IMG/VR virus record: IMGVR_UViG_3300020042_010636
Location: 1-28,052 of that record
DNA from: a virus
Lineage: Duplodnaviria > Caudoviricetes
Reading direction: 5' to 3' (one strand)
DNA length: 28,052 bases
The notes under the pieces were generated by a model. That model did not search any database. It was not told the origin of the DNA and was given only the letters and a program-made list of their open reading frames with translations. Below, piece by piece: positions 1-28,052 of this stretch (position 1 is its first letter; every line of letters begins with the position of its first letter). The position numbers and the translations under genes were made by a program.

Positions 1-261
1 GCCATCTTCTTCCTTCACTTCATCTGACTTCCTAGGGTCACCGGTAGAAAATTTACTGTCATTGGCATAGATGGGGAAGGCATACCTAGGCAGTGGCAGC
101 TCCCGGTAGGGGATTATAGGCGGGTTAAGTGTCCTAAATTCAGCCTGTTGCACTGCTGTTAGGGTATCCCACCAGGCATCAAAGGCTGTTTCTTCAGCCC
201 TGCCATCCCGCAGGTGTTGAAGATGTGCCATTTTCCTTCTCTTTATTGGGTCAGATGCCAC
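1..261 (-). CDS. hypothetical phage protein, partial (runs off the left edge)
   Basis: Hand translation: open frame from GTG 261 or ATG 231 (MAHLQHLRDGRAEETAFDAWWDTLTAVQQAEFRTLNPPIIPYRELPLPRYAFPIYAND...) with no stop before base 1; not in the ORF track. Confidence 0.6.
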   Translation of the reverse strand, partial: MASDPIKRRKMAHLQHLRDGRAEETAFDAWWDTLTAVQQAEFRTLNPPIIPYRELPLPRYAFPIYANDSKFSTGDPRKSDEVKEEDG

Positions 262-295
262 TAGATGAACAGTTTTTTTGTTTATGTTAGTGGTT

Positions 296-646
296 TTAAG
301 CCCCAGATTGGGCTGTTAGGCTATTAATCCACAGTTTTTTCTGCTTATCAAACTTTATAAATCCATAGCGCACAGCATAGACCCTAAGCCTTTTCAGTCT
401 GGCTTTGGATGGGTCAAGCCCTTGGGCTGCTAGGGCATCACCCATCAGCTGCTTGCTTAGGGATGCCTGGAATGACCTAGGAAGCCTTTGGATGACTTGG
501 CTGACACTTCCTGCCTTCCTTTCCTTTAAAGCCTTCCTAGAGGCAATCAGGGCATCCAGGTTAGCCTTCATAGCTTCTGGGTTAACCTTCCATTGCTTCT
601 TCCAATGTTGAAGCAGTGAGAAATGCCTTTTGCCTTTATTGGGCAT
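296..646 (-). CDS. basic hypothetical protein (possibly DNA-binding)
   Basis: ORF track 296..694; ATG 646 (MPNKGKRH) preferred because the upstream part overlaps the palindrome cluster; K/R-rich. Confidence 0.6.
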   Translation of the reverse strand: MPNKGKRHFSLLQHWKKQWKVNPEAMKANLDALIASRKALKERKAGSVSQVIQRLPRSFQASLSKQLMGDALAAQGLDPSKARLKRLRVYAVRYGFIKFDKQKKLWINSLTAQSGA

Positions 647-680
647 AGAACACCGGCTGACCGGAAGGGGAAGGGGTAGG

Positions 681-762
681 CATAGGGGGTGCATCCCCTT
701 GGCTTAGCGTAGCGTTAAAAGCCATAGGGGTAAATCCCCTATTATTACCCTTTAGGGTAATA
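681..762. repeat. cluster of inverted and direct repeats downstream of the helicase (candidate replication origin or regulatory site)
   Basis: ATAGGGG-taaat-CCCCTAT (724-742); TATTACCCT-tt-AGGGTAATA (743-762); related AGGGG-gtgcat-CCCCT (684-699). Confidence 0.55.
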
Positions 763-789
763 GGTCTGTGCCAGGGAAAGAACACAGGG

Positions 790-2112
790 TTAAACATCAT
801 CCTTAGAAGGGGGTGGTGCGTTGTTAATCTCCCACTTAATTTCACCCCTAACCTTACTGTGCCGGATGCGCAGTGACTCAGTGAACATACCTTGGGCATC
901 CCGCATCCCTGCCCTTCCTCCCCGCTTGCCTAGTTTGAAGATGAAGTGGGGCTGTTCAGCATCTTCCCTGCGCAGGATGGCTGTGCTTCTAAACCAATTT
1001 GCTAACTCACTACTGCCGGTGAAGTCATAGGTAGCTTGCACATTACCATCACCCTTCTTAGGGGGTTTGTTTTGATGGTGGACAGCTACCAGGGCGCAGC
1101 CTGTCCGCATAAGACAGGGCTGAAGGATGTGGCGCAGGAAGTGGCTGCAGAATTCCTGCTTAGATACATCCCCACCAGCGAACCCCAGCAGTGGGTCACA
1201 CACTAGCAGGTCTGCACTGTGGGTCTTAACCAAATCTTCAATCAGCTGCCCAAAGGCATCACCGGTCTTAACTGCTTCCCGGTAGATGAATACATTTTCA
1301 GCCAGGGTCTGATGGTCAGCCTGGGTTAAGTGCATTGCATTTGTTACATCTAACCACTGTTCACTTAAATCACCTAGGTCATTTTCACTTTGCAGCAGGA
1401 CAATCCGCAAGGGCTTGACCGGTTTGATGCCCCATAGGGGTTTGCCCAAAGCCCAATTTATAATCATTGAAGTGACCAGGGATGACTTACCACAGCCAGC
1501 CTGACCGGAAAACAGTAGGCTACCACCCCGGCACAGCCACCGGTTACCTATTAGGTTGTTAGGGTCATTGTGCCGGTCAAAGGCATACAGGTCTGGCAGC
1601 TGCATCCTTTGGGTGGTTGTTTGCCCTGTGTTGCCTTCCAGGATGGCTTTAGCCTGGGCTTGAAAGGATGTGGCTAACTCAGATGGCTTGAAAGCCCCGG
1701 ATAGTGCCTTGGCTGTAATGTCCCGGGCTATGTAGATTAACTGCCTAGCCTGGTGCTTCTCAGTCAGGATGTTGATGGCTGGTTTGATGTTCCCTGAAGG
1801 CGCAAACAGGCTAGCGGTCAATTCATTGATGTAACTGATGCCCCCTGCCTGGTCTAGTGCCAGGGTGCTTCTTAGGTGGTTGGATAGGGTTAATTCATCC
1901 GGGCTAATGCCTTCAGTGATGAGCTGCTGGCAAGCCTGGTAGATGGTCTGGTGCTTTGGTTCAAAGAAGGCATCTGGCTTCAGTGCTAGGTCAGTGCAGG
2001 TTTTGAAGATGCCAGCAACCTGGTCAGCATCTACCAAAATTGAAGCCAGCACTGTGCGCTCAGCATCCAGGTCTGAAGGTGGAAGCTGTGCGGGTGCTTT
2101 GTGGGTTGTCAT
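790..2112 (-). CDS. replicative helicase: DnaB N-terminal-like domain fused to a RecA-fold RepA/AAA_25-type ATPase
   Basis: N-terminal PPSDLDAERTVLASIL...FFEPKHQTIY...GGISYINEL (DnaB-N pattern); Walker A GQAGCGKS, Walker B LLVCDP, VHHQNK and GSS motifs. Confidence 0.8.
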   Translation of the reverse strand: MTTHKAPAQLPPSDLDAERTVLASILVDADQVAGIFKTCTDLALKPDAFFEPKHQTIYQACQQLITEGISPDELTLSNHLRSTLALDQAGGISYINELTASLFAPSGNIKPAINILTEKHQARQLIYIARDITAKALSGAFKPSELATSFQAQAKAILEGNTGQTTTQRMQLPDLYAFDRHNDPNNLIGNRWLCRGGSLLFSGQAGCGKSSLVTSMIINWALGKPLWGIKPVKPLRIVLLQSENDLGDLSEQWLDVTNAMHLTQADHQTLAENVFIYREAVKTGDAFGQLIEDLVKTHSADLLVCDPLLGFAGGDVSKQEFCSHFLRHILQPCLMRTGCALVAVHHQNKPPKKGDGNVQATYDFTGSSELANWFRSTAILRREDAEQPHFIFKLGKRGGRAGMRDAQGMFTESLRIRHSKVRGEIKWEINNAPPPSKDDV

Positions 2113-2135
2113 AGGTTGGGTGGGTTGTCTGTTAA

Positions 2136-2267
2136 TCAGTTATTAGGTTGCTTGGAAAGTTTTAAAACCCTGCGGACATAAATGCACTGATGGCATCTGC
2201 ATCCACCGGTAGGGTCAGCTGCTAGTGGCTTCTGCTTGGGCTTAGGCTTTTGCTTTGGCTTCTTCAT
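2136..2267 (-). CDS. small Lys/Pro-rich peptide with a GCRCxxC motif (43 aa)
   Basis: Hand translation MKKPKQKPKPKQKPLAADPTGGCRCHQCIYVRRVLKLSKQPNN*; CCTATG start context; fills the gap between methyltransferase and helicase. Confidence 0.45.
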   Translation of the reverse strand: MKKPKQKPKPKQKPLAADPTGGCRCHQCIYVRRVLKLSKQPNN

Positions 2268-3342
2268 AGGCTTTGATGCGCTCACCTAACAGCCGGATGA
2301 CCGGCACTGCCATTGAATTGCCTAGGGCAATCATCCGCAGGTTGTCTGGGCATTTGTCTGGGTGCTTACCCTTCCAGGGAATTTGGGTGTAGTTATCTGG
2401 GAAGCCTTGCAGCCTTTCCACTTCAACACAGGTCAACCTGCGCACACATTCAGCCCTGACTAGTGGGGTGTTATTTCCCCCTGTTCCGTATTTAGCCACC
2501 ACTGTTGGGGCTATGGTAGGGCAGGGTGTTATCCGGCTGTCCTGTCCGTGATTTTCATAAAGCACTGCTTCATCTACCACAGCTGATGTGCTGCGTATGT
2601 CACCCAGGTCAAACAGGTTGAAGGTGTTAGTGAAAGGGCTTTCAACCCAGGTTTCATAGCCATCACTGCTGACAGCCCGGGCTGACTTCCTAAAGTGCTT
2701 TAGGCTTCCTGCGCCTGTAGCAATAGGGCTTTGTGCAGTAGGGGTGGCAGTGTCCGGTCTTTCTTCACAGCCCTGGTCAAGATGCCCTGGCAAGCCTTGG
2801 GGCTTAAATAGTATTTGGGCAGCTGCTTCCCGGTCAGTAAGATGTGCGACAAGATAAACCCTGCGTCTACGCTGGGGCAGGGGTTTAGGGCTTCCTGTGC
2901 CTTTAGCATCCAGCACCCGCCATCCAAAACTATACCCGCACTGTCCCAATGCCCAGATGAAGGAAGCGAAATCTGCCCCCCGGTTACTGTTAAGCACACC
3001 TGGGACATTTTCCCACAGGACATAGGATGGGCGCAGCCTAGCAATAAGGCTGACAAAAACCAGGGTAAGGTTTCCCCTTGGGTCTGCAATTCCTTCCCGG
3101 TAACCTCCAATGCTGAAGGCTTGGCAAGGGCTTCCCCCAATGAGAATGTCAACTGTGCCGGGTTGGATGTTCCAGGTTGGGTGTTGGGTAATGTCTCCAT
3201 AGTTTTTATGTGTAGGATAATGATGCGCTAGGACAGCAGATGCAAAAGGGTTTATGTCTGCAAACCCAAGGGCTTTAAACCCCAAGGGCTTCCAGGCAAC
3301 AGATGCAGCTTCAATGCCACTGAACACAGAAAGGTAATTCAT
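2242..3342 (-). CDS. DNA (cytosine-5)-methyltransferase (alpha-like chain)
   Basis: Motif I SVFSGIEA, motif IV GGSPCQ, motif VI WENVPG, motif VIII QRRRRVY, C-terminal RRLTCVEVERLQGFPD and ALGNSM. Confidence 0.95.
   Translation of the reverse strand: MNYLSVFSGIEAASVAWKPLGFKALGFADINPFASAVLAHHYPTHKNYGDITQHPTWNIQPGTVDILIGGSPCQAFSIGGYREGIADPRGNLTLVFVSLIARLRPSYVLWENVPGVLNSNRGADFASFIWALGQCGYSFGWRVLDAKGTGSPKPLPQRRRRVYLVAHLTDREAAAQILFKPQGLPGHLDQGCEERPDTATPTAQSPIATGAGSLKHFRKSARAVSSDGYETWVESPFTNTFNLFDLGDIRSTSAVVDEAVLYENHGQDSRITPCPTIAPTVVAKYGTGGNNTPLVRAECVRRLTCVEVERLQGFPDNYTQIPWKGKHPDKCPDNLRMIALGNSMAVPVIRLLGERIKAYEEAKAKA
2700..3200 (-). CDS. nested alternative-frame ORF, putative methyltransferase beta-like subunit (EcoHK31I-type arrangement)
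   Basis: 166-codon same-strand +1-frame ORF wholly inside the methyltransferase; C-terminus LSHILLTGKQLPKYYLSPKACQGILTRA..LPPLL..AL resembles, from recall, the beta-polypeptide pattern; ACTATG start context. Confidence 0.7.
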   Translation of the reverse strand: METLPNTQPGTSNPAQLTFSLGEALAKPSALEVTGKELQTQGETLPWFLSALLLGCAHPMSCGKMSQVCLTVTGGQISLPSSGHWDSAGIVLDGGCWMLKAQEALNPCPSVDAGFILSHILLTGKQLPKYYLSPKACQGILTRAVKKDRTLPPLLHKALLLQAQEA

Positions 3343-3359
3343 TTGTCAAAGTCAGTTTA

Positions 3360-3797
3360 TCAAAAGTCTGGGGAGTCAGTAGTGTCAACCTGGTTAGTGA
3401 AGGGATGAAACTTAGTCACCTTGCAGATGGTTTTGGTAGTGCCATCAGCAAAGGTAACATCTTCCTGCACCACACTTACCTTCAGCCACTTGCCTTCAGC
3501 TTTGGAAAGGAATGTGCGCAAGCCTTCACCAGACCGGACAGGCAAGCCAACCTTATCACCGGTGGCTGTCCCGACAAAGGCAGCAGCGCGCTTCAGTGCG
3601 CCATCAGTGCTGGCAAAAAAGGTGTCATTAATCTTCTGACTGTCCTTAGTTACCATCAGCACTTTAATCTTAGCATCACCCTTCTGGGTGGTGGAAATGT
3701 CATCATCAGTAATCCGGCACACCTTAACCAGATAATCACCTGGCTGGGTGATGCGGGTAAGCTTAGGCTTAGGGTTGTTTTCGTTTTGGTAGCTCAT
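3360..3797 (-). CDS. putative single-stranded DNA-binding protein (DUF669-like)
   Basis: PGDYLVKV N-terminal motif, beta-rich, acidic tail ending DTTDSPDF, located in the recombination/replication module. Confidence 0.6.
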   Translation of the reverse strand: MSYQNENNPKPKLTRITQPGDYLVKVCRITDDDISTTQKGDAKIKVLMVTKDSQKINDTFFASTDGALKRAAAFVGTATGDKVGLPVRSGEGLRTFLSKAEGKWLKVSVVQEDVTFADGTTKTICKVTKFHPFTNQVDTTDSPDF

Positions 3798-3799
3798 TG

Positions 3800-4036
3800 T
3801 TATTGGTTAGTTTCGGTAGTGAAGGGTTTGACTGTAAGGCTTCCATCATTCAGCAGCTGCTGAAGCAGGATGGCAGTAGCAGGGTTGTCTGTTTTGACAA
3901 AGCCATTGCCACTGTAAAGGCAAGCAGTGCCGGTGGGTGACTCATCATTGGCATAGCGGAACAGATAGAAAGGGCTTTCCCCTTCCTTCCTAGCCTGGAT
4001 GACTTGCGCCACCCAGATTTTGCGTTTGGTTTCCAT
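3800..4036 (-). CDS. hypothetical protein
   Basis: ORF track 3800..4057; ATG 4036 abuts the exonuclease stop. Confidence 0.55.
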   Translation of the reverse strand: METKRKIWVAQVIQARKEGESPFYLFRYANDESPTGTACLYSGNGFVKTDNPATAILLQQLLNDGSLTVKPFTTETNQ

Positions 4037-4037
4037 A

Positions 4038-4916
4038 TTAGGCAAAGGTGATGCCATCTAACTCTGCCTTATTCTCATAAGGTTTCAGCATCTGGATTTG
4101 CTTAGGATAGGTTGGGTAACTGTTGAAGGCAGTAGCAGCCCGGTATGCTTCAACAGCCTGGGTGACCAGCACCCCACCTTCAGCAATCAATTCACTACTC
4201 ATTTCAAACACACCGGTGGCATTGGGTGCAGCCTTCTCACCACAGATGAAGCGGACACCCTGTGGGCGAACCCCGAACACCTGCTTAAACAGCAGACAAT
4301 AGAAGGCAGATTGGATGTGCCAGCCCCGCTTGTAAACTGTGCGCAGGACATTCTTAGGGGTGATGTATTCACCAAAACTTTTCAGGTCATAAATCCAACC
4401 ATCAGAAGTCACGAAATCTAACTGACCCTTCAGTTTAACATCACCATAGTCACAGGTTAGGCAGATTTCAGTGGCAAGGGGTGTGATGTTCCAATGCTTC
4501 ATTTCAGCATTTAAAGCCAGACCGGTGGTGATGGCTTCCTGGTATTCATCCCGGTCAGCAATGGTCTTACCCTGGCTGGTCAGCTCAAAATTATCCCACC
4601 AGGCTATTGCTTCCAAGGTTTCGGGCTTAGGCTTCTTAGCAGTGCGCTGCTTCTCAGTGGGCTTCTTAGGCGCATCTTCCGGAAGGCAGATGACCTGGCT
4701 AGTGAACAGCTCAGGTTCAAGGCAGAAAAGGTGGGTCAGACTGCCAATGCGCAGGGCAGGTGTTTCCTTCTTAGGGCTGTCCAGGTATGCCTTAAGGTGA
4801 CCGGGGCTAATTAAGATAAGCTTTGCAGCTGTCTGGTTAAGCGCACTGTGGGCATCATAGTCAGCCCTGTTCCAATTAGCAGTGGGCAGGTTATCAATCA
4901 TCTGTTTAGTTATCAT
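4038..4916 (-). CDS. PD-(D/E)XK exonuclease (RecE/ExoVIII, DUF3799-like)
   Basis: ALRIGSLTH, KGQLDF...IYDLKS and QSAFY motifs; near the ERF gene. Confidence 0.85.
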   Translation of the reverse strand: MITKQMIDNLPTANWNRADYDAHSALNQTAAKLILISPGHLKAYLDSPKKETPALRIGSLTHLFCLEPELFTSQVICLPEDAPKKPTEKQRTAKKPKPETLEAIAWWDNFELTSQGKTIADRDEYQEAITTGLALNAEMKHWNITPLATEICLTCDYGDVKLKGQLDFVTSDGWIYDLKSFGEYITPKNVLRTVYKRGWHIQSAFYCLLFKQVFGVRPQGVRFICGEKAAPNATGVFEMSSELIAEGGVLVTQAVEAYRAATAFNSYPTYPKQIQMLKPYENKAELDGITFA

Positions 4917-5145
4917 TGTGTTTAGGTGCTTTAGTTTTTTTGGTTGGGTTGCAGAAGGGAAAGGAAATGAAACCAGCGTTAGCCATCAGACAGAAAAGGG
5001 CTGCATCAGCCTTAGTGTCAAACCGGATAAGGCTACCATCCCAGGAAAGAAAGCCTGGGCTATGCTGGAACATCCCACCGGTGACCAGGATGAATAGCTT
5101 AGTGCTTCCGTTGCTGTCCCTGCCTTCTTCAATCTTAAAGGTCAT
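4906..5145 (-). CDS. hypothetical protein
   Basis: ORF track; CCTATG start; tight packing with neighbours. Confidence 0.55.
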   Translation of the reverse strand: MTFKIEEGRDSNGSTKLFILVTGGMFQHSPGFLSWDGSLIRFDTKADAALFCLMANAGFISFPFCNPTKKTKAPKHNDN

Positions 5146-5148
5146 AGG

Positions 5149-5355
5149 TTATTCAATGGGGTATTTCTTCCGGTAGGCTTCAGCCTGTCTTTCCAGGGCA
5201 TCAATCCTTTGGCGCATTTCCCTGGCATCCCAATCAACCTGCCGGATGCAACCAGCCAGGTCTTTCTGTCGGGTTAGCAGGTCAGCCATTATGTCTAGGA
5301 TTTGGCGCAGCTTAGACACCGGGTAGGGCTGGGGCTGTTTGTTTTCTTCAACCAT
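5149..5355 (-). CDS. hypothetical coiled-coil protein
   Basis: ORF track; heptad-like helix; overlaps the upstream stop. Confidence 0.55.
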   Translation of the reverse strand: MVEENKQPQPYPVSKLRQILDIMADLLTRQKDLAGCIRQVDWDAREMRQRIDALERQAEAYRKKYPIE

Positions 5356-5710: not shown

Positions 5711-5712
5711 TG

Positions 5713-6429: not shown

Positions 6430-6451
6430 TGGATGTATGGGGGAAATGGGA

Positions 6452-6523
6452 AGCTTCAGACAGGGCTTGAACCTGCAACCTATGGTTTACAAAACCATTG
6501 CACTACCATTGTGCTACTGAAGC
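6452..6523 (-). tRNA. tRNA-Thr(UGU)
   Basis: Cloverleaf: acceptor GCTTCAG/CTGAAGC, D arm GCAC/GTGC, anticodon arm ATGGT-TTTGTAA-ACCAT, T arm GCAGG-TTCAAGC-CCTGT; no CCA directly after the discriminator. Confidence 0.9.
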
Positions 6524-6530
6524 AGTTTGC

Positions 6531-8887: not shown

Positions 8888-9076
8888 TTATTTGCGCTTG
8901 CTGGTGAATAGGGAACACAGGCTGATACCTAGCACCACCGGGATAAGGATGGTGAGGAAGAAAAGGGCTAGCCCATAGCAGCCCTGGTTGAAGTCAGCCT
9001 GGGTCAAGGGCTGGTCATAAGCAGCCCGGTGGTTAGCGGGTGTGGTAGTGTGTGCTTTCATAGTGTGGGTTGTCAT
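8888..9076 (-). CDS. small membrane protein (early region)
   Basis: ORF track; one TM helix and basic C-terminus; MTTHTM leader. Confidence 0.6.
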   Translation of the reverse strand: MTTHTMKAHTTTPANHRAAYDQPLTQADFNQGCYGLALFFLTILIPVVLGISLCSLFTSKRK

Positions 9077-9116
9077 AGGTAGGGTTAGGGAAAAGGTTAG
9101 TGCTTAGTGATGCGCC

Positions 9117-9539
9117 TTAAGCTTGGGGATGATGGGCAATGTTCATCAGGTCAGAAAAGATGCTGATGATTGTCTGGCAATCAATCTGCCTGTGCATCAG
9201 GTGAAGCTTCTGGTTGGCAAGCTGCTTGCCTTCCTTTGTTTCAAGGTCACCCCTGGGCATTGCCTGGTGCTGAGCCTTCAGGCTTTCAAATTCAATGGTG
9301 GCTGCACTGATGTAATAGGCAATGACCTGCTGGTTGCTGATGACCTGGCTGACAGCAGTGCCGGTTTCCAATCTGCGCAGCATCATCATTGTCAGATGGT
9401 TCACAGTGCCTGTCCGGTGGGTGTTGCCATAGTGCCTGAAGCCATTGGAAGCATACCGGATGCCAGCCTTGCGCAGTGCCAGCACCAGACCGGCTAGCAC
9501 CGGATTGGTAAGGGTGGGGATGTTTTGATTGTTAGGCAT
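9117..9539 (-). CDS. hypothetical early protein
   Basis: ORF track. Confidence 0.6.
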   Translation of the reverse strand: MPNNQNIPTLTNPVLAGLVLALRKAGIRYASNGFRHYGNTHRTGTVNHLTMMMLRRLETGTAVSQVISNQQVIAYYISAATIEFESLKAQHQAMPRGDLETKEGKQLANQKLHLMHRQIDCQTIISIFSDLMNIAHHPQA

Positions 9540-9577
9540 TTTCGTTTTATCAGGTGAAGGTTATGGGCTGGGGCTAA

Positions 9578-9964
9578 TCACTTAGCCCAGGTGATGCCAA
9601 AGGCTTTGTTCCAATCACCCACCAGGCTACCCCTTTTGACCAGCCCACATTCATTGTAACTAGCACCCCTGTAGTAAGTGCGCAGGGAAGGGGGTAAGGG
9701 CTTGTCACCTTTAACACCCTTAGTGTCCCTGTGCCACTTCCAATAGGTCAGCTGTTCCTGGTGCTTCTTCTTAATGCCAAGGGCATCCACCAGCAGCTGA
9801 CTGTTGGCAGGGCATTGGGCAATCAGGGCATCATCTTCAACCATCCAGGCTTCCAGCCGGGTTACCCAGAAGGGTGCAGCATATTCAATCTGACCGGGTG
9901 ACCAGGTCTTTAGGTCAGCAGGGTTAGCAGGGATAGTGGGGATAATCATAGGGTGTGTGGTCAT
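9578..9964 (-). CDS. hypothetical early protein
   Basis: 3' part of ORF-track 9578..10180; start reassigned to the MTTHPM leader (ATG 9964 or 9949). Confidence 0.65.
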   Translation of the reverse strand: MTTHPMIIPTIPANPADLKTWSPGQIEYAAPFWVTRLEAWMVEDDALIAQCPANSQLLVDALGIKKKHQEQLTYWKWHRDTKGVKGDKPLPPSLRTYYRGASYNECGLVKRGSLVGDWNKAFGITWAK

Positions 9965-9974
9965 AGGTGGAAAG
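9946..9974 (-). repeat. 29-bp start-associated repeat, copy 1
   Basis: TCATAGGGTGTGTGGTCATAGGTGGAAAG (+ strand), identical at 11160-11188, one mismatch at 10621-10649. Confidence 0.9.
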
Positions 9975-9976
9975 TG

Positions 9977-10009
9977 GATGGTCAGTGGTGGGTTGTCAAA
10001 TGGTTTGTG
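9977..10009 (-). promoter_or_regulatory. 33-bp repeat containing TTGACA, putative early promoter
   Basis: Identical to 10885-10917; TTGACA on the minus strand at 9994-9999; -10 element not canonical (CACTTT at 17 nt). Confidence 0.65.
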
Positions 10010-10010
10010 A

Positions 10011-10259
10011 TTAGCCCCGGTCAGCCCGGTCATCAATCTGGTCAGCCAGAAGGCGCAATTGTTCAGCAATCGGCCATAGGCAAGCACCACCATTGGGAAG
10101 CCTATAATCTTTATTGATAAGAGTAGCTGCTTCTTCAAAGGCTTCTTCAAAGCAGTCAGCATTGGTAAAGGAAGGCGCAAACAAAGCCTTCACAAAGGCA
10201 TCCACTTCAGCCGGGTTGGGTTCATAAGCCTTTAGGCTTTCATTGTAATCAGCAGACAT
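10011..10259 (-). CDS. hypothetical early protein
   Basis: ORF track 10011..10307; CCTATG at 10259 (MSADYN) preferred. Confidence 0.6.
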   Translation of the reverse strand: MSADYNESLKAYEPNPAEVDAFVKALFAPSFTNADCFEEAFEEAATLINKDYRLPNGGACLWPIAEQLRLLADQIDDRADRG

Positions 10260-10294
10260 AGGTTTTAGGTATTGGGTTGGGTTATCTGGGTGGG

Positions 10295-10639
10295 TTAGGA
10301 AATGCAAAGGTAGTGGTGACCATAGGAAGAAACAACCCGGTGGGTGTGCTGCTTCTGGATTTTCTTAAAGCAAGTGCTACCCACAGAATGAAGCCCCAGC
10401 GCATCTGGGAAGGTGTTGCTCAGGTATTCAATGCAACCTTCAGCTACCTTCTGCCCAGCCAGGGCTTCAAGGGTTTCCAGGCTGCAAGGCTGACCCTGCC
10501 AGGAAACAAGCCAATGCTTGCCTTCAGACTTCCTGCCACAGCAGTAGCAGGTGTAGTAACGAACCACCACACTAGGCTTCTTAGCCTTACCGGTGTAGGG
10601 GATAATGTTGCGCAGGGTGGTCATAGGGTTTGTGGTCAT
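10295..10639 (-). CDS. hypothetical early protein, possible Zn-ribbon
   Basis: CYCCGRK ... VGSTCFKK Cys motifs; MTTNPM leader. Confidence 0.6.
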   Translation of the reverse strand: MTTNPMTTLRNIIPYTGKAKKPSVVVRYYTCYCCGRKSEGKHWLVSWQGQPCSLETLEALAGQKVAEGCIEYLSNTFPDALGLHSVGSTCFKKIQKQHTHRVVSSYGHHYLCIS

Positions 10640-10649
10640 AGGTGGAAAG
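10621..10649 (-). repeat. 29-bp start-associated repeat, copy 2
   Basis: TCATAGGGTTTGTGGTCATAGGTGGAAAG. Confidence 0.9.
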
Positions 10650-10657
10650 GGGAAGGG

Positions 10658-10858
10658 TTAGCCCTGCCGGTGTCCGTAGCTTAGGCTTTCATTGACAGCC
10701 TGGCAGCGCAACCTGTTCAGCTTCCGGTCAATAACCTTCTTAGCCATAGGGTTATTGGCTAACTTGCGCTGGGTCTGGTAGAATTCAACGCTGCGCTTAG
10801 TGCTTGGAAGCACACCTGGTAAGGCAATGGCTTCAGTAATGGTGGGGAGTTTAGTCAT
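10658..10858 (-). CDS. small basic early protein
   Basis: ORF track; follows a promoter repeat. Confidence 0.6.
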   Translation of the reverse strand: MTKLPTITEAIALPGVLPSTKRSVEFYQTQRKLANNPMAKKVIDRKLNRLRCQAVNESLSYGHRQG

Positions 10859-10884
10859 AGTCGGGTTGTCTTAGGTGTTAGGTT

Positions 10885-10917
10885 GATGGTCAGTGGTGGG
10901 TTGTCAAATGGTTTGTG
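10885..10917 (-). promoter_or_regulatory. 33-bp repeat containing TTGACA, putative early promoter
   Basis: Identical to 9977-10009; TTGACA at 10902-10907. Confidence 0.65.
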
Positions 10918-11178
10918 TTAGGCAATTTCAAAGGCAATTTTAAGGGCATCCAATTTGGCTTTAAGGGCAGTGCGCTGGGCAGTGGAAACCTTCAACATTT
11001 CAGCAGCCCGGACAGCTTCAATGCTGGGCTTACCATTTTGCTTTGTGTAGCCAGAATACATCTGGTTAATGTGGATGCAGCCATCCAAGCGGGAAATGTT
11101 TAATTCAATCTGTTCAATGGCAAACAGGATGGCAGTTGCTTGGGTTTTAGTCAGGGTGGTCATAGGGTGTGTGGTCAT
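10918..11178 (-). CDS. hypothetical early protein
   Basis: ORF track; MTTHPM leader. Confidence 0.65.
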   Translation of the reverse strand: MTTHPMTTLTKTQATAILFAIEQIELNISRLDGCIHINQMYSGYTKQNGKPSIEAVRAAEMLKVSTAQRTALKAKLDALKIAFEIA

Positions 11179-11188
11179 AGGTGGAAAG
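11160..11188 (-). repeat. 29-bp start-associated repeat, copy 3
   Basis: Identical to 9946-9974. Confidence 0.9.
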
Positions 11189-11202
11189 GTTGGGTGCTTC
11201 CG

Positions 11203-11225
11203 GGTGGGTTGTCAAATCGTTTGTG
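11203..11225 (-). promoter_or_regulatory. third TTGACA repeat, putative early promoter
   Basis: Minus strand CACAAACGATTTGACAACCCACC, one mismatch to the matching part of the 33-bp repeat. Confidence 0.6.
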
Positions 11226-11450
11226 TTAGGCGCAGTGGTTGGCAGTGTGGTGGTTAATAATGTCCAGGCTACCCATAGCATTGCTAAGATTGTGCGCCTT
11301 CCGGTAAGCAGTCAGGGCATCATCAATAGCCTTATCCATAGCCTTGCGCTCAGCCTGGGTTGCATCTTTCCATTTGTTGCTGGCAGTGTTCCAGGCAGTG
11401 CTAAGGGTTTCAGCAGCCAGGGTTTGTTGGGTGGTCATTTGTTTTTTCAT
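11226..11450 (-). CDS. small helical early protein (first gene of the early array)
   Basis: ORF track; CCTATG start. Confidence 0.6.
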   Translation of the reverse strand: MKKQMTTQQTLAAETLSTAWNTASNKWKDATQAERKAMDKAIDDALTAYRKAHNLSNAMGSLDIINHHTANHCA

Positions 11451-11477
11451 AGGTGTTAGGTTGTTTGGAACATCAGC

Positions 11478-13584: not shown

Positions 13585-15195
13585 TTAAATTACTGTAAAG
13601 GCTGAGTCACCTGTGCTGTCAATGACTCGGATTTTAAAGGCGTGGGCTGTGTTTGTGTTCATCCCATTAAAATAAACAGTGTTGCCAGAATGAATTAATG
13701 AAGCATTATAAACACTTGTAGTGGTATTAAAGATACCCCAATTACCTACCCCAATGTTAACCATCATTCTGGGGATTGTAGTCCCCCAGCCAAAGCCCAT
13801 TGCTGCATTTGCCCTATCAATGGAAATCACTTCAGAAGCAATGATGTTTGCCTTAATTTTATTAGGTTCAGCTACTGCCCTGGTAACATAGAAGGTGGTA
13901 GCAATTTCTGCGTTGTTTGATGAAGCAAGCTGTGATGGTGCTAGTGGGTAACCTGTGAAACTTGGGCTGGATAAAGCTGCCTTTAGTGCCAAAGCAGTGT
14001 CAACCTGTGCAATGCTGTAAACGCTAAGATTTGTCCGGGCTGTGGTAGTGCTTCCTAGGTCAGAAAGGTTATTAGTTTGGCGCAGATAGCGACCATCAGC
14101 AGTGGCTTCAGTTAAAGGTGTTTCAAGTGGTGAAATGCTTAAAGCACCTTCATCAATAACAGCTGACTTAAGGGTGCAGGGGATTTGTAGAATTGTCTGC
14201 TTTGAAGCACCATCTGCAATTTCCACTTCCAAGGTGGTTTCAATGCTTTCAGCACCATCAAGATAGCTGATGGCATTGGCTGTGTTAATGTCAAGGTCAC
14301 CCTGGAAGCCAGCAAAGGACAGCAGCCCTGCACTGCTTGCAGTCATACCGGCTGTGTTAGGCTGCACAGTTACTGCAATGTCATAGGCAAAAGCCCCAAC
14401 CTGTTGCACTGTAACCTTATCAGCCAGGGCATTAATGCTTAAGGCGTTTTGAACATCCAGGGCTGTGCTTCCTACAGCAATGGAAGCAGTGCTTACATCA
14501 GTGCCTGTAAGCGCATCATAGGCTAGGCCAAATGTTCCACCCTTTGGGTCAGGGCTAATAGCCAATCGGTAAACAGCCCGGCTACCATCCCAGGCTGACA
14601 GGGCAGTTACTGTTGCAGTGCTGGCAGTAAGCGCACTGAAGGAAGTGGCAAGCGCAGCCACATTTTGTTGAAGGTGAACCAGGACAATTTCAGGGTGTGT
14701 AGCATCACCTTCCTGCAAAACGGAAATGCCAACACTGCTAAGGGGGATGAGCGCAAAAGCATCACCGGTGAAAAGCCCCCTGCTACCATTGGTAATAAAT
14801 TTGATGGCATAGTTATCCCCAACCTTAGTAACAGTTACATCACCGGCTGCTGTGATGGAAGCCAGCTGATTAAGCTTAGTTTCCATAAAGGCAGCTGTGG
14901 TATTGTAATCCATTACATTGGTAGTGTTACCCCCAAAGGTAAGGGTGAAGTGACCGGCAGTGGGGCTAGCATCGATTTTGCCCACAGCAATCCGGATGCC
15001 AGGTGTTCCAAGCCCAGACACTTCCTGCCGGGGGTAAGACCCTAGCCCGGTTTCCTCAATAAAGAAGATTTGCAGCTTAGCCAGGTCACCTAGGAAGAAG
15101 GAAGGATTACTGACCGGGCTGGTGCTGGAAAAGTTGGGATAGGCTAAAGCAGCCTTAACATCAATAAACAGTTTATGTGTGGTAGGTAATGGCAT
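13585..15195 (-). CDS. tail fibre / receptor-binding protein
   Basis: A/T/S/G-rich; NNLSDL..TARTNL and SPSFTGYPLAP...IATTFYV fibre motifs; last large tail gene. Confidence 0.75.
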   Translation of the reverse strand: MPLPTTHKLFIDVKAALAYPNFSSTSPVSNPSFFLGDLAKLQIFFIEETGLGSYPRQEVSGLGTPGIRIAVGKIDASPTAGHFTLTFGGNTTNVMDYNTTAAFMETKLNQLASITAAGDVTVTKVGDNYAIKFITNGSRGLFTGDAFALIPLSSVGISVLQEGDATHPEIVLVHLQQNVAALATSFSALTASTATVTALSAWDGSRAVYRLAISPDPKGGTFGLAYDALTGTDVSTASIAVGSTALDVQNALSINALADKVTVQQVGAFAYDIAVTVQPNTAGMTASSAGLLSFAGFQGDLDINTANAISYLDGAESIETTLEVEIADGASKQTILQIPCTLKSAVIDEGALSISPLETPLTEATADGRYLRQTNNLSDLGSTTTARTNLSVYSIAQVDTALALKAALSSPSFTGYPLAPSQLASSNNAEIATTFYVTRAVAEPNKIKANIIASEVISIDRANAAMGFGWGTTIPRMMVNIGVGNWGIFNTTTSVYNASLIHSGNTVYFNGMNTNTAHAFKIRVIDSTGDSAFTVI

Positions 15196-21579: not shown

Positions 21580-22455
21580 TTAAGCTGTCTTTACCCGCTT
21601 TCCGGCTGTGCCTCGCGCCTTCGACACCCCAAAACGCATAGTGGCTGTAAGGCGCACAATGCCATCTGTGCCTTGCGAGCGCAACACTTGGACAGAAAGA
21701 CCAGAAGCATCAGTGGCAGTGGAAGCTTCACCTGGGAACATACCCGCAAAAGGCGCACCCATACCGATTGCCAAGGCATCAGCACCACAGGCGAAGGCTG
21801 CGAGATTTTCCGAATTGGTAGGAAGGTCAGTGAATTCAAAGACCTGGAAACCAGCAATAGTGCCAATCAGACCGGAGCTGATAAGGGAAGATTGACCAGC
21901 CTGGTTAAAGGGGGCTGTCAGTGTGGCATCCTTACGGAGCGCACCGGCATAAGCACCATTGACCAGGAGACAGCGAGGGTCACCAGCCTTGGCATCATTC
22001 AGGTCAGTGTTAAGGTCAACAACCTGGGCATAATTGAAGTTAGCAGCTGTGATGACTTCATTAGCACTGAAGTTTGCATTAAGCAAAACAGCACCGATTT
22101 CAGAATGAACCTTCTTCACAAGCTGGTTGATGGCTTCCGGAACGAAAGCACGAGCAAGGTATTCTTCACCATATTCACCGATTTCATCAGGCGAGAAATC
22201 CTTAGTGCTGTGCAGGTGTTTAAGGGTTACGCTGACAGCAGTAAGGTCAGCTGCATCAGACTCATTGTAACCGCCATTTGCCTTAGAGAATTCTTTAGCA
22301 GCACCACCAGAAACCAGGCTGACCTGGATGGTCTTACCCACAGCATTTGTGGAAAGGTTTGTGCTGAAAGCGGACAGGAAGCCTAAGCGACCCTTAAGAC
22401 CGGGAAGGATGATTTCGGAGAGGGCTGCGGGCGCAGCCGAGAATGTATTAGCCAT
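21580..22455 (-). CDS. major capsid protein
   Basis: 291 aa after the protease and scaffold genes; GKTIQV, PRCLLVN and GLIGTIAGFQVFE HK97-fold-like motifs; followed by a terminator. Confidence 0.85.
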   Translation of the reverse strand: MANTFSAAPAALSEIILPGLKGRLGFLSAFSTNLSTNAVGKTIQVSLVSGGAAKEFSKANGGYNESDAADLTAVSVTLKHLHSTKDFSPDEIGEYGEEYLARAFVPEAINQLVKKVHSEIGAVLLNANFSANEVITAANFNYAQVVDLNTDLNDAKAGDPRCLLVNGAYAGALRKDATLTAPFNQAGQSSLISSGLIGTIAGFQVFEFTDLPTNSENLAAFACGADALAIGMGAPFAGMFPGEASTATDASGLSVQVLRSQGTDGIVRLTATMRFGVSKARGTAGKRVKTA

Positions 22456-22491
22456 AGTAGTTTTTTATTAGGTTAGATTGAGTTAGGGAAA

Positions 22492-22941: not shown

Positions 22942-23310
22942 CTTAGTTATGCACTTGAAGTCAAATGCCATTGCTTCCTGGTCTAGTTTTTCAACCTGCC
23001 GGGTAGCCCAATCAGCTGCATCCATTACATCACCGGACACAGACCCACCCCAGATAAGCCAAGCCACAGCACCAGCCCCAGGGAAGTCATCATTGTCAGG
23101 TTTGTTCTTAGGCGCATCCAGGTCAGGCTTATGCCTAGCAAACCAGGCTGGCATCAGGCGCAGCTTGCTTTCTGTGGTAAAGCCTTGGGCAAGCTCCCTG
23201 GCTTCATCTAGGGTCTTATCAGTTAAGCCATCCCCACCCTTGCCTTCCCGGTTATAATCTAACCCCCTTTGGGCATTAGCTTTAATGAAGTCTGGAACAT
23301 CAATAGCCAT
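22492..23310 (-). CDS. head protein: uncharacterised N-terminal domain (RGL...WFARH...AWLIWGG) fused to a coiled-coil scaffold-like region
   Basis: ORF track; between the S49 protease and the capsid. Confidence 0.7.
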   Translation of the reverse strand: MAIDVPDFIKANAQRGLDYNREGKGGDGLTDKTLDEARELAQGFTTESKLRLMPAWFARHKPDLDAPKNKPDNDDFPGAGAVAWLIWGGSVSGDVMDAADWATRQVEKLDQEAMAFDFKCITKMASEINSLTPEAQVEKLASTLATIQAEKSELQKTFEALASEKMAVADEATKLKADFEAHKLLAETEKAELTTLLAQAQATQVTASKEAAKVISSLGMKPVEISPADKSANEEALDAKAVWSAFVKMKAGTEKQAFFRKHKAILDPLNLS

Positions 23311-23312
23311 AA

Positions 23313-24119
23313 TCAAACCCGCTTCTTTAAAGCACCAGGTTCAAGCTGTGCCATTAGCACCTTGAAGCTATCCACCAGACCGGTAGCCAAACCCTTTGCA
23401 GCTGCTTCCCTGCCGGAAATAGAAGCACCGGTTAGGTCAGCATCAGCAACCATCTTCCGCTTCATCTTCACATCAGCCTTAAAGGTGTTGGCAGTTTCAA
23501 TGACAGACTTCTGAAGGTAGGCTTCCTGGGCTGTGGTCATTTCTGTTCCTGGGATGCCAATGCCTTTCAGCTCATCTGACCGGTAAACCTTAACCTTAAT
23601 GCCCATAGCCTTAGCCTGTTCAGATACATCGTGAACCACAGCATAGACCCCCACGCTGCCTACGGAAGCTGAAGGGCTGACCACCACCCGGTCACTAGCA
23701 CTGCCAATCCAATAGGCACTGCTGTTCATAGACCCGGCACTGAAGGCAATGGTGGGGATTTTAAGACCCCGGATTTTGGAAGCTAATTCTTCAACCCCAT
23801 CCACAGTGCCACCATCTGAATTAATGTTAAAAACAATTTGCTTAGGGTTGGCTGCAATAGCCTGGTCAATGTAGTCATCAATCACTTCAACATCTGTTGC
23901 GCCTATGGCTTCATAAGGGCTTAAGCCCTTGCCAATCATCCCGGTCACCGGGATTACAAAAGTGCCACCTACCTGGTAGGGCTTTGGGGCTTCTCCAAAA
24001 AACTTGGAAATAAGGTCAGTGAAGCCAAGCTTTTCAGTGGTAGCCAGATGCTGTTGGGCAATCTGATAATCCACTAGGAAAACCTTTTGACCGGTGATGG
24101 CTTTGTTTAGGCTACGCAT
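23313..24119 (-). CDS. S49 (SppA/ClpP-class) prohead protease, lambda gpC-like
   Basis: INSDGG, MNSSAYWIGS and SVGSVGVY motifs. Confidence 0.9.
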   Translation of the reverse strand: MRSLNKAITGQKVFLVDYQIAQQHLATTEKLGFTDLISKFFGEAPKPYQVGGTFVIPVTGMIGKGLSPYEAIGATDVEVIDDYIDQAIAANPKQIVFNINSDGGTVDGVEELASKIRGLKIPTIAFSAGSMNSSAYWIGSASDRVVVSPSASVGSVGVYAVVHDVSEQAKAMGIKVKVYRSDELKGIGIPGTEMTTAQEAYLQKSVIETANTFKADVKMKRKMVADADLTGASISGREAAAKGLATGLVDSFKVLMAQLEPGALKKRV

Positions 24120-24131
24120 AGAATAAAAGTG

Positions 24132-25625
24132 TTAAGGGTTTGTGTCCTGGGCTGGGGCTTCCGGCTGTGGCATTTCATCCATCTGCGCTTCAGCAGCTGT
24201 GGGTTTGCCCTGTCCCTGTTGAAGCCAATTAAAGCCAGGTTTATAAAGTGTCCAAAGTGGTATGCCTTCCTTTTCAGCAAGCTGCATAATAAACTTAAAG
24301 TCAGCAGCCCGCTTAGTCATTTCTGTGCGCAGGTCTAATCCACGCTGGGCATAAAGCTCAGACATAGACAGCAGACCTAATTCAACATCAGCCCGGTCAG
24401 CAGCTGCATCCCTACCAGCATCAATGGTTAGGCGCTTAGGGGTAGTCCAAGAAACCTTGAACCAATCAGGGCTGTCAGGCAATTCACCCCGGTCAATCAT
24501 ACTGCCTACCACATAAAGATAGACAGGTGTGCAAAGCTTCTCAATCAGGATGACCTGCCACCGGGAAAAAATTCTGTCAGCCTTGGCTGCAATTAAACGC
24601 AAAGCAGCTCCCCCTGCGCCACCAGGATTGGAGGTAAATTCATAAGGGATTGTTCCCCGGGCAATGTCTTTCTGCACTGCTTCTAGGAAGGCTACAAAAT
24701 TATTGTTTGGACGATTTGAACCAATGCTAGTTAGGCTTTCACCAGGTTCTAGCACAGCAAGTTTGCCACCTAGTTTTCTGGACAGCACTTCACCATTACT
24801 ACCAGACCCACCCAATTCATCCTTAAGCTGACCAGCCACAAAGCCACCTTGCTTCTGCAACACCCTAGTAAAATCCGCATCATTTTGAACAGCCAACATT
24901 TCCAATTTAAGTAGCTCATCCTCACTTTGAATGTCTGCCCAGCTGTGCTGAAGCATTGGCAATCCCCGGCTACCACTAGAATAATCCTGTTCACAAATCT
25001 GCCGGACAGAAGATGCGGGCAATAGTTTGCTTTTGCCTGTGCCTTCCAGGATGTTAAATGCTTTGATGCGCCCAACACTGTCAAACTGCACCCCATCAAT
25101 CATCCCAGCCGGGATGGGTTCACCAGGGGGATTGCCCACCCTATGCCCTTCAACCATTTGGATTTTAGGCATCCCTTCTTCATCATTAACTAAAATGGCA
25201 AAGCTATCACCATCCCGTATAGCACCCCTAAGCAGGATGCGCTGGATTTCTACCCAGGTAAATTTACCGGATAGGTCTAGGGTCTTAGCAGCCTGGGTGA
25301 AGGCTTCTTCATAAAGTGCAGCCTTAGCTGCATCAGAACAATTTGATTGATGAGTAATGCCAGCTTCACCTGCGACATAAGTAACAAAGTCACCAAAGAT
25401 TTGGCGCACCAGCCCACAGTTTCTTTCACCATAGCGAAGGCGTTTAATCATTTCCAGCCGGTCAGCCGGGGTGTAGTCAGCACTGAAATCTACAGCTGTG
25501 CCATAGACAGCAGCCCGGTTACCATTATTCTGGATGCTAGTAAACTGCTGTGTGCCAGCCAGCTTCTTAGGCTGGTTGCTGTCTGCTGTGACTTTAGGTG
25601 TTCCCTGTGGTTTCTTCTTAGGCAT
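24132..25625 (-). CDS. portal protein, lambda family
   Basis: 497 aa; RDGDSF, DGVQFD and RGLP motifs; between gpW-like and protease genes. Confidence 0.85.
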   Translation of the reverse strand: MPKKKPQGTPKVTADSNQPKKLAGTQQFTSIQNNGNRAAVYGTAVDFSADYTPADRLEMIKRLRYGERNCGLVRQIFGDFVTYVAGEAGITHQSNCSDAAKAALYEEAFTQAAKTLDLSGKFTWVEIQRILLRGAIRDGDSFAILVNDEEGMPKIQMVEGHRVGNPPGEPIPAGMIDGVQFDSVGRIKAFNILEGTGKSKLLPASSVRQICEQDYSSGSRGLPMLQHSWADIQSEDELLKLEMLAVQNDADFTRVLQKQGGFVAGQLKDELGGSGSNGEVLSRKLGGKLAVLEPGESLTSIGSNRPNNNFVAFLEAVQKDIARGTIPYEFTSNPGGAGGAALRLIAAKADRIFSRWQVILIEKLCTPVYLYVVGSMIDRGELPDSPDWFKVSWTTPKRLTIDAGRDAAADRADVELGLLSMSELYAQRGLDLRTEMTKRAADFKFIMQLAEKEGIPLWTLYKPGFNWLQQGQGKPTAAEAQMDEMPQPEAPAQDTNP

Positions 25626-25631
25626 AAAAGG

Positions 25632-25886
25632 CTAGTCAATTAGGTTATCATATTTCTGGATGATAACTGTAGTGCGCTCACCATAGGTGGCACTGTCTGC
25701 AACAGATAGGGCAAAGGTGGTTTCTAGATACCTTTCCTTTGCTGGCATTGTGATGGATTTGCCAACAGATGTGCCACTGTCAGAATAATTGATGGTGACA
25801 ACCCCGGTAGTTAACTCAGCCAAAGCTGCATCCCGCATAGCCACTAGGGTGTTTACAGGGATGCCTATGAAGATGCCTGAAGCCAT
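25632..25886 (-). CDS. gpW-like head-tail joining protein
   Basis: Small ORF between terminase and portal; start reassigned to ATG 25886 (MASGIF). Confidence 0.6.
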   Translation of the reverse strand: MASGIFIGIPVNTLVAMRDAALAELTTGVVTINYSDSGTSVGKSITMPAKERYLETTFALSVADSATYGERTTVIIQKYDNLID

Positions 25887-25892
25887 TTGAAT

Positions 25893-25907
25893 TGCACCAT
25901 TAGTCAA
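25893..25907 (-). promoter_or_regulatory. late-gene motif TTGAC-N6-TGCA
   Basis: TTGACTAATGGTGCA, 6 nt before ATG 25886. Confidence 0.5.
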
Positions 25908-25925
25908 TTAGTGGTGAAAGCCAGG

Positions 25926-27767
25926 TTAGCCGGTCTGGTCATTGCCTTCAGGCTTAGGGTCATCAGGCACTGCTTCTGTGGCTTCCCTACCAATGATGCC
26001 CCAGCGCACTGCCAGGATAAGACCCATAAGCGCACAATCCCAGGCGTGGTTGCCCTGGGTCTTACCGGCTGGCATTATCCAATGTGGCTTCCCTGTCCGG
26101 CTATCCTTCACCCGCACTTCAGCTGTTAGCTGTTGCACATATTCATCCGGCACATTTCTGGGGTAGGTATGCAGTCTGCGTTTCTGCAAGCCACTTAGGA
26201 AATCCTTTGTGGGTAGGTTTCCCCACACAATCATTTCACATCTGCGTTGCTGACCAGGAATAAAGATGAGCTGCTTATCAGAATAAAATCGTTTGGTAGT
26301 TTTACCCCCACCATCCTGCACTGAGAAGTCAGCCTGACCACTACCCCTTAAAGCCTTCCATCCCCGGCTGGCACACTGCGCATAGACTTCCTGGGTCTGG
26401 TCACCACAGTCAACCCCCACCAGGGCTTTGTTTACCTGGTGCAGTTTAACCAGGTCATCAATCTGTTGCCAGGTTTCAAGTTTGCCATACCACCTTAACC
26501 GGCTGTGACCGGTCTTAGCCCATCCCCGCACTTCAGCCCAGAAGTGTCCCCGCTGCACATCTACGGAAACTGTCCGGAAGGGGATTGAACCATCAGGGAT
26601 GTTGGCACTGTGAATGTCCACCACCCTGGCTTCAGGCGTTAACTTGGCTTCTAAATCCCACACATCATCTAAGGCATAATCACCTGCCTGGGCTTGGGCA
26701 GAAATCTCACCCCCATCTTCTGACCAGGGCTGTGCCATCCGCTTCATTTTCCATATCCGCCTGGGTTCATCATCCCCATATAGGTCTGCACTTTCTTTAG
26801 CCTTTAGCAGCCGGACACCTTCTTTTCCAAAGCTGCTATTGCACAAACAATTCCAATGAAGCCCAATGCTTCCCCAGCTGCTAGCCTGGGTGGTAGCCCG
26901 GAAGCCAGCACCCCGGTCAATCCGGTTAGCTTCTGCCCTAACCCCAGGGCTATCCTTCAGCCGGGTATGGCAGCTGCAACATTCATAGGTTGTGCCGGTT
27001 TCAACCTTCTGGAAATCCCACATCCCACCCACCTTGGCATCATCCGGAAAGCGCACATAATCCCACAGCCAGGGCTGGACAAAGGAACAGGCAGGGCAGC
27101 TGAAGCACCACTGCATCTGGTTAGTGCCATTGTGCAAGGTGTGGAATTCATCACCCACTGTCCCAGCCTGTGACATAATAATTACCCGCCCCATAAAGCT
27201 GAAGCTTTGGGTTCGTGCCATTGCTTCTGCTATGTGTCCCCTAGGCACTAACCAGGCTTCATCAATAATCACTGTGCGCAGGGAAAGGCGTTGCAGGTTG
27301 TTTTCATTCCAAGCCCCCCGGCAGTAAACTGTTACCCCATTGCTGAAGTCAGCCACTGTGCTTTTATCATTGTCCCCTTCAGCCAGCATTGCTTGCACCA
27401 CCGGTGTCTGCTTCCACAATGGTCTGACATAGCGCAGGAAGAAATCCTTTGCTTCAGGGTCATTGGCTTGCAGCATCATAAAGGGTGCGGGTGCATTGAT
27501 GATTTGCCAGATGGAATAAAGCCTAGCAAACAATGACTTCCCAGATTGGGTGCTAGCCAGGATGGTTAGCAGTTTGGTTTCTGGGTCAGTGGCAATGCGT
27601 AAGGCTTCAGCAATCCAGGGTGTCCGGTTAAGGTTAAGCCTTCCCCTGATTGGGCTGTCGGGAACATCATTCACATTGTCCTGAAGCCACTGCACTACAT
27701 CCCCTGAATAACTAGGTTTGATAATAGTTTGGGCTGCTTCAATCAGCTTTGCTTCCTGGTCTGTCAT
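25926..27767 (-). CDS. terminase large subunit, GpA family
   Basis: RTPW, Walker A STQSGKS, Walker B VIIDE, CPAC Zn motif, VDVQ and NHAWDC nuclease motifs. Confidence 0.92.
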   Translation of the reverse strand: MTDQEAKLIEAAQTIIKPSYSGDVVQWLQDNVNDVPDSPIRGRLNLNRTPWIAEALRIATDPETKLLTILASTQSGKSLFARLYSIWQIINAPAPFMMLQANDPEAKDFFLRYVRPLWKQTPVVQAMLAEGDNDKSTVADFSNGVTVYCRGAWNENNLQRLSLRTVIIDEAWLVPRGHIAEAMARTQSFSFMGRVIIMSQAGTVGDEFHTLHNGTNQMQWCFSCPACSFVQPWLWDYVRFPDDAKVGGMWDFQKVETGTTYECCSCHTRLKDSPGVRAEANRIDRGAGFRATTQASSWGSIGLHWNCLCNSSFGKEGVRLLKAKESADLYGDDEPRRIWKMKRMAQPWSEDGGEISAQAQAGDYALDDVWDLEAKLTPEARVVDIHSANIPDGSIPFRTVSVDVQRGHFWAEVRGWAKTGHSRLRWYGKLETWQQIDDLVKLHQVNKALVGVDCGDQTQEVYAQCASRGWKALRGSGQADFSVQDGGGKTTKRFYSDKQLIFIPGQQRRCEMIVWGNLPTKDFLSGLQKRRLHTYPRNVPDEYVQQLTAEVRVKDSRTGKPHWIMPAGKTQGNHAWDCALMGLILAVRWGIIGREATEAVPDDPKPEGNDQTG

Positions 27768-28052
27768 AGCTTGGATGTGGCTAGAAACTTCCGGGCTTCA
27801 AGTGTCCACTTCTGCAAAGCCTTCTGCGCTACTTCCGGTCTGTCTGGGTTACAGGCTTCAGCTGCTTCTAATTCTAACTTATCCAATTTCTGAACCACCC
27901 TGGCTGTCCAGGCTTCAATGACTGTCTGGGCTTCTGTGGTCTTAATATAATCCCGGGCTTCTATTGCCCTTTTCTTTTCCTCATCTTCCAGGTCAATCAG
28001 GGTCTTAAGGCTTTGGTTATAGGCTGATTGAAGTTTAGACTGCGCTGGGTCT
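27764..28052 (-). CDS. probable terminase small subunit, C-terminal part (partial)
   Basis: Hand translation ...DPAQSKLQSAYNQSLKTLIDLEDEEKKRAIEARDYI...FLATSKL*; ATGA overlap with the large terminase start; helical. Confidence 0.65.
   Translation of the reverse strand, partial: DPAQSKLQSAYNQSLKTLIDLEDEEKKRAIEARDYIKTTEAQTVIEAWTARVVQKLDKLELEAAEACNPDRPEVAQKALQKWTLEARKFLATSKL

Follow-up and report, generated by a model that had tools for sequence, protein, structure and literature searches.

The phage genome and its annotated features

The window, by which we mean the whole stretch of 28,052 nucleotides analysed here, is the virus record IMGVR_UViG_3300020042_010636 of IMG/VR, the genome of a tailed phage (Duplodnaviria; Caudoviricetes) that lacks a large set of short DNA words, keeps others such as CCGG and GCGC in quantity, and encodes a C5 cytosine methyltransferase. 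An earlier note, made from the letters alone, had proposed that the phage purges restriction targets and may shield the spared words with this enzyme. We consider extreme avoidance of restriction sites to be the likely cause of the purge, with CCGG and GCGC surviving because the hosts of this lineage do not cut them, and not because the phage methylates them. The gene set, all on one strand, comprises a helicase, the C5 methyltransferase, an exonuclease VIII-like protein, Erf, a resolvase, a ligase, a holin, tail and capsid proteins, a protease, a lambda-type portal and a GpA terminase. The features used below are as follows.

1..28052: genome of a tailed phage, near-complete (97%); the word purge runs through all of it and is strand-symmetric, and every annotated gene is on the minus strand
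790..2112, minus strand: helicase with DnaB-N and AAA_25 domains; its N-terminal domain served as a host clue
2242..3342, minus strand: accessory C5 cytosine methyltransferase of 366 aa (PF00145, E 8e-49; phrog_116; TIGR00675)
2700..3200, minus strand: nested out-of-frame open reading frame (ORF) of 166 aa within the methyltransferase gene, without a family match
6452..6523, minus strand: tRNA-Thr(UGU) gene, between erf and the next ORF
10072..10075: GGCC site, one of two in the window
14526..14529: GGCC site, the other of the two
14972..14975: TCGA site, one of two in the window
21580..22455, minus strand: major capsid protein, the query for gathering relatives
21621..21624: TCGA site, the other of the two
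24132..25625, minus strand: lambda-family portal; top-listed isolate matches are Akkermansia and Puniceicoccales phages (24-26% identity)
25926..27767, minus strand: GpA-type large terminase, the basis of the tree

No integrase or repressor was recognised among the window proteins scanned, which come from a 97% complete genome with many ORFs lacking an assignment; the phage is probably lytic. At least one fifth of the window's sampled words are present in each of eight sequencing runs from five studies, all freshwater or riverine (runs with shares below 0.2 were left out as evidence), and contigs from four runs of four studies align along the tested 19-kb stretch with strain-level differences. 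Because these contigs, and independent virus records with the same pattern, agree with it, the window is a natural sequence and not an assembly artefact. Positions 9000-11460 are a variable region with short ORFs and, in front of them, repeated leaders of 30-50 nt (families D2 and D5), modules that are skipped or rearranged by strains in other runs.

A genome-wide purge of short words

The CG dinucleotide is depleted along the whole length of the window, with 483 copies observed against 1720 expected (rho 0.28). The counts that had first drawn attention to this hold up: bases 1-1200 contain exactly 20 CG against 74.5 expected, 16 of them inside CCGG, GCGC or CCGC/GCGG; GATC, CATG and GTAC are each absent; GGCC and TCGA occur twice each, at the four positions listed above; and CTAG (105), AGCT (172), TGCA (148) and TTAA (150) are common. 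Of the 483 CG, 211 lie within CCGG and 101 within GCGC (312 together), and CG runs low in each of the eight four-base contexts outside the spared words. The one grouping to be corrected is that of CCGC/GCGG with the spared words, since it is in fact depleted (54 against 211 expected).

The purge is broader than had been seen. ACGT is absent, CGCG and ATAT are reduced to 3 and 11 copies, and GAG/CTC to 114 against 868 expected; ACTGG, GGNNCC, GGWCC, GAWTC, GDGCHC, GCSGC, CGWCG and GAAGAC all have a count of zero. A softer layer is seen at the level of three bases, where CGA, ACG and GAG, counted with their complements, are down to 0.06, 0.09 and 0.13 of the expected number on both strands. About one fifth of all six-mers (883 of 4096) are missing from the first 25 kb, as against none in a shuffled sequence. 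Most of the hard-zero words of four to six bases match what we take to be classical Type II restriction sites; the trimers and many asymmetric six-mers among the purged words have no obvious fit to orthodox Type II sites.

Codon choice or selection on mRNA, through the host tRNA pool or sequence-specific RNases, was weighed as a cause, as codon use is extreme (among 623 threonine codons ACG occurs once and ACA 175 times) and the phage carries its own tRNA-Thr(UGU). The depletion nevertheless survives both codon-usage-preserving and uniform synonymous shuffles of 42 genes, the control that had been asked for: CG is seen 452 times against 1070 in shuffled genes, GATC 0 against 102 and GGCC 2 against 105, with CCGG in excess at 200 against 109. 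The purged trimers are low about equally on both strands, and 66 non-palindromic five-mer pairs have lost both orientations, while no pair has lost just one. This symmetry indicates that the force acts on double-stranded DNA, which excludes Type III-style avoidance of one orientation, nowhere seen among the five-mer pairs of the window, and makes a codon- or mRNA-level cause hardly tenable.

In scale, 103 five-mer types fall to 10% of expectation or less in 25 kb of the window and 41-101 in its relatives, against 7 in T7, 13 in KHP30, 20 in A-4L, 10 each in Pan4 and Moulinsart and 6 in P8625. The purge is thus about five times broader than in the strongest control tested, a comparison with six hand-picked phages that gives no rank among phages at large.

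Origin of the CCGG excess and turnover of surviving sites

The excess of CCGG is what remains after codons have been funnelled into the words still allowed. Synonymous codon choice was modelled by maximum entropy with 42 terms that allow depletion only; the model predicted 175 CCGG, 97 GCGC and 188 CCWGG in coding sequence, where 197, 94 and 210 were seen; with only nine depletion terms the expectation already exceeded the observed counts. Because the data being explained also served to select its terms, into which the exceptions are built, the model speaks for sufficiency only. Positive selection for the spared words is accordingly unnecessary in the window, although its absence does not follow from this. 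In the relative G018 (relatives are labelled G or L with a number), AGCT retains a residual excess (431 against 327 modelled), and the top residual is CGA running into the spared GATC family (46 against 13).

Loss of CG might also be mutational, through deamination of methylated cytosines to TG and CA, both over-represented in the window (rho 1.34). Single changes at non-spared CG, all unpolarised, show no strong excess of C>T: 37 of 71 against 762 of 1536 overall between the window and G001, and 135 of 266 against 1590 of 3597 between G002 and G004. Surviving CGA, ACG and GAG sites are short-lived, being kept between close relatives at rates of 0.43, 0.42 and 0.50 against a background of 0.72, and a turnover of this kind, with C>T not markedly in excess, is better matched by selection than by deamination. 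Deamination moreover could not account for the loss of GAG, GATC, CATG or GTAC, nor for the on/off switches between lineages described below, and we regard it as a very improbable explanation.

Lineage-specific on/off patterns among relatives

Relatives were gathered by searching virus contigs and include 14 purged genomes that are at least 87% complete; their terminases were placed in a tree of 58 rows built by a quick method. Each terminase subclade has its own on/off pattern of words, as the following counts of CCGG/GCGC/GGCC/GATC illustrate.

Window: 211/101/2/0
G002: 333/0/187/0
G007: 0/150/237/196
G015: 122/0/201/114
G018: 111/413/2/108
G026: 0/519/316/260

Other words are lost almost throughout: GTAC, CATG, ACGT, GGWCC, GGNNCC and CGWCG stand at or near zero in nearly all members, the exceptions being CATG in L010, G022, G024 and L156, GTAC in L010 and ACGT in G011. 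A sister clade at 54-56% terminase identity and 58-64% GC, which includes the complete member G025, is unpurged.

Whole-word switching between close relatives is all-or-none. When the window and G002 (79% amino acid and 76.5% nucleotide identity) are aligned codon by codon, none of 143 GGCC, 73 GCGC and 167 CCWGG sites is common to the two, against a same-site sharing of about 40% for all four-mers; hundreds of sites have therefore come and gone, in opposing directions, within a short distance.

The trimer sets that are purged also vary by subclade (CGA, ACG and GAG in the window; GAG, CAC and GAC in another subclade). Together with the low CG in every non-spared context, this variation could point to a host defence that reads very short motifs, or to a variable-specificity family of enzymes sharing cores, in which the spared palindromes would be methylated in every strain. 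The logic of such a family is known from the MmeI enzymes, whose sites share the penultimate methylated adenine and vary elsewhere (PMC2731913; this and the other articles cited by PMC number are drawn on in excerpt). Two further observations serve as leads only, namely that the commonest context of the surviving GAG overlaps the spared AGCT (24 of 114) and the CGA-into-GATC residual of G018. The contexts are, on the other side, graded and not uniform, and in G011 CCGC and ACGG stay at about 1.0 of expectation while CGA is lost, which fits a sum of separate sites. We think such a defence unlikely as the principal cause, although it may act alongside the avoidance of individual restriction sites.

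Three further observations concern the edges of the group. L144, a 5.8-kb contig nested in the purged clade at 67% terminase identity, has no general purge; a host switch or a mosaic is possible. L010 (7 kb, 42% GC) has AGCT at eight times expectation, no CCGG, GCGC or GGCC, and keeps CATG and GTAC. The subclade of G014, G016 and G026 has purged GAG and CAC, with GAC reduced; AGCT and CASTG are largely missing from it, and its CG is not depleted.

The C5 methyltransferase does not track the spared words

The 366-aa enzyme carries C5 motifs I, IV (PC), VI (ENV), VIII, IX and X in one chain. Its gene lies between the gene at 3360-3797 and the helicase gene, two neighbours that are directly adjacent to each other in G002, G004, G007, G008 and G011. 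If this enzyme methylated CCGG and/or GCGC, it could let them persist, as the earlier note had supposed. The gene is intact and itself fully adapted to the word purge of its lineage, its predicted recognition region aligns weakly and without significance (2.9 bits) with the corresponding part of M.HhaI, which recognises GCGC, and the window's lineage retains CCWGG, a word not found in the sisters G002-G005, in which the enzyme is missing. An AlphaFold model has a predicted local distance difference test (pLDDT) score below 50 over residues 182-344, too poor in the recognition region for a prediction of specificity.

The distribution of enzyme and words among the relatives tells against protection. 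G002, G004, G007, G016 and G017 keep CCGG, GCGC or both, and searches of these five for PF00145, phrog_757, PF01555, PF02086 and phrog_1384 gave no match; among them G002 and G004 keep 333 and 319 CCGG, and the complete G007 keeps 150 GCGC and also CCWGG. Conversely, G021 and G022 (fragments of 8 and 6 kb) encode a 69-70% identical enzyme with a predicted recognition region nearly identical to the window's, yet have no GCGC and keep GGCC and GATC. One common pattern is found in G017, with no methylase found, in G018, with an N4/N6 methylase plus Mom, and in G019, with a different C5 methylase. The pattern is independent of the phage modification genes. It is therefore quite improbable that the phage's own enzyme accounts for the spared words, and the combined strategy of purging and methylating falls with it, as word retention does not co-vary with the presence of the enzyme. 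What stands of the original proposal is the purge of restriction-type sites and its alternative that CCGG and GCGC are untargeted in the host.

Accessory modification genes are swapped across G003, G005, G008, G011, G014, G015, G018 and G019; the types include short C5-type methylases (phrog_757), an N4/N6 methylase, a Mom-like protein and a second long C5 type. G008, with a short methylase, keeps 69 CGCG against 1 in G007, and G014 keeps 49 AGCT against none in G016; from these differences some short methylases might protect a single word.

The ORF nested in the methyltransferase gene is open over 175-212 codons in all five methylase carriers, with a conserved C-terminal motif, and has 17 homologues in the protein collection searched as well as Atlas clusters made up of hypothetical proteins, most of them viral. 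It was considered as a beta chain of the M.EcoHK31I type and rejected in that role: the main ORF holds its own motif IX and does not depend on a nested product for it.

tRNA-Thr(UGU) and the forced codon shift

All 12 near-complete CG-purging genomes carry tRNA-Thr(UGU), against none of the four unpurged ones (G014, G016, G025 and G026). ACA makes up 19-37% of threonine codons in 11 tRNA carriers and 4-6% in G014 and G016; G011, at 10%, fits the link poorly. The tRNA may serve the codon shift that the loss of ACG forces, the contrast between carriers and non-carriers may reflect a single evolutionary event, and an alternative is that the tRNA replaces a cleaved host tRNA.

Clues to the host

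The clues point weakly to a freshwater member of the Verrucomicrobiota, an assignment we hold to be somewhat better than even. The two top-listed isolate matches of the portal, among 20 records matched, infect Verrucomicrobiota (24-26% identity), and capsid, fibre and terminase match the Verrucomicrobia phage P8625 in a local search. A terminase search against all phages did not place Verrucomicrobiota phages near the top, and the capsid found no match among isolated phages. Scanning GTDB with the capsid and with an alignment of terminases returned no real relative or prophage, only one spurious match of 47 residues. Searches with the DnaB N-terminal domain reach cellular proteins, and of 26 clusters looked up two carry an organism name, Muribaculaceae and Opitutales; as the choice of the last ten of the 26 was guided in part by a pattern typical of Opitutales, this counts for little. 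Opitutales-like DnaB loci from metagenomes showed a CG purge in none of the 47 loci of at least 7 kb (of 80 returned), the lowest CG ratio being 0.7, and the excerpt of PMC6329791 holds no matching host methylome.

Proposed origin of the purge

It is proposed that restriction enzymes are the agent of the purge, and long-term selection by a large and changing set of host enzymes has most likely stripped dozens of short words from both strands, the on/off pattern of each lineage being set by the enzymes of its host. The hard-zero layer would reflect enzymes common in the current host population, and the softer CGA/ACG/GAG layer could arise as many rarer or longer sites built on these cores add up. 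Host strains should differ in their systems, because selection would be relaxed if all hosts were alike and passed on their methylation; in a mixed population the methylation gained in the last host would give no protection, and every site would carry a cost. The hard layer fits site avoidance as described in PMC6286503, and the trimer layer is without a clear fit.

Several points weigh against this proposal. Neither a host genome nor a host restriction repertoire was found in two GTDB scans or at the metagenome DnaB loci; Type I and IIG sites are not avoided in the cases covered by the excerpt of PMC6286503, and the trinucleotide purge and the many asymmetric six-mers therefore exceed the usual pattern; the passage of a phage with 150-400 copies of a word into a host that cuts that word is unaccounted for; and the codon model, as said, carries sufficiency only.

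A more speculative picture, to which we give little credence, is of an abundant freshwater bacterium with nucleases that read about three bases (CGA, ACG or GAG cores), tolerated only inside palindromes that are always methylated. Its phages would have rewritten their genomes and kept tRNA-Thr(UGU) for the shift from ACG to ACA. In that event the on/off words of a lineage would be a readable print of the methylome of its uncultured host.

Site avoidance through host restriction, the explanation we prefer, leads one to expect that the freshwater host is unusually rich in restriction systems. Near-complete relatives set apart by hundreds of sites, lost and gained in concert, constitute a natural experiment, which makes it testable how fast phages re-code after a change of host or restriction system, and whether uncultured phages can be assigned to hosts by matching missing words with metagenomic methylomes.

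Comparison with known systems

A search of the literature, covering titles and abstract openings with subscription journals mostly outside its reach, returned nothing on this phage family or its purge. Like orphan C5 methyltransferases of other phages (PF00145, phrog_116), the window's enzyme has all the catalytic motifs, and full-length enzymes of 37-42% identity occur in the Roseobacter phages CRP-821/822, Akkermansia phage Chantilly and Burkholderia phage Bcep22, in each of which an annotated hypothetical gene lies beneath the methylase match; it differs in being accessory and in that its presence does not track the retained words. In M.EcoHK31I the beta chain is encoded in another frame inside the alpha chain and bears motif IX (PMC2836561). 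The window resembles it in having a conserved ORF that lies inside a C5 methyltransferase gene in a different frame, and differs in that the main ORF holds motif IX. P8625 and Akkermansia phage Moulinsart are of similar size (31-33 kb) and give distant portal matches, with capsid and fibre as well as terminase matches to P8625, but identities are only 20-31% and neither phage is purged.

The closest parallel to the purge itself is the avoidance described by Rusinov et al. (2018; PMC6286503), in which near-complete elimination is reported for the most part in non-temperate phages and at orthodox Type II sites, with no avoidance of Type I or IIG sites in the excerpt used and little avoidance in phages with protective modification (2.4% against 55.8% of sites). 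The window is alike in that short, mostly palindromic words are wholly eliminated on both strands of a genome without an integrase match; to the cases in that excerpt it adds its breadth, a purge at the trinucleotide level, and all-or-none switches that run in opposite directions in relatives whose proteins are about 80% identical. Site avoidance is already known, and this phage is an unusually extreme case of it, with a lineage-specific on/off barcode and a trinucleotide layer.

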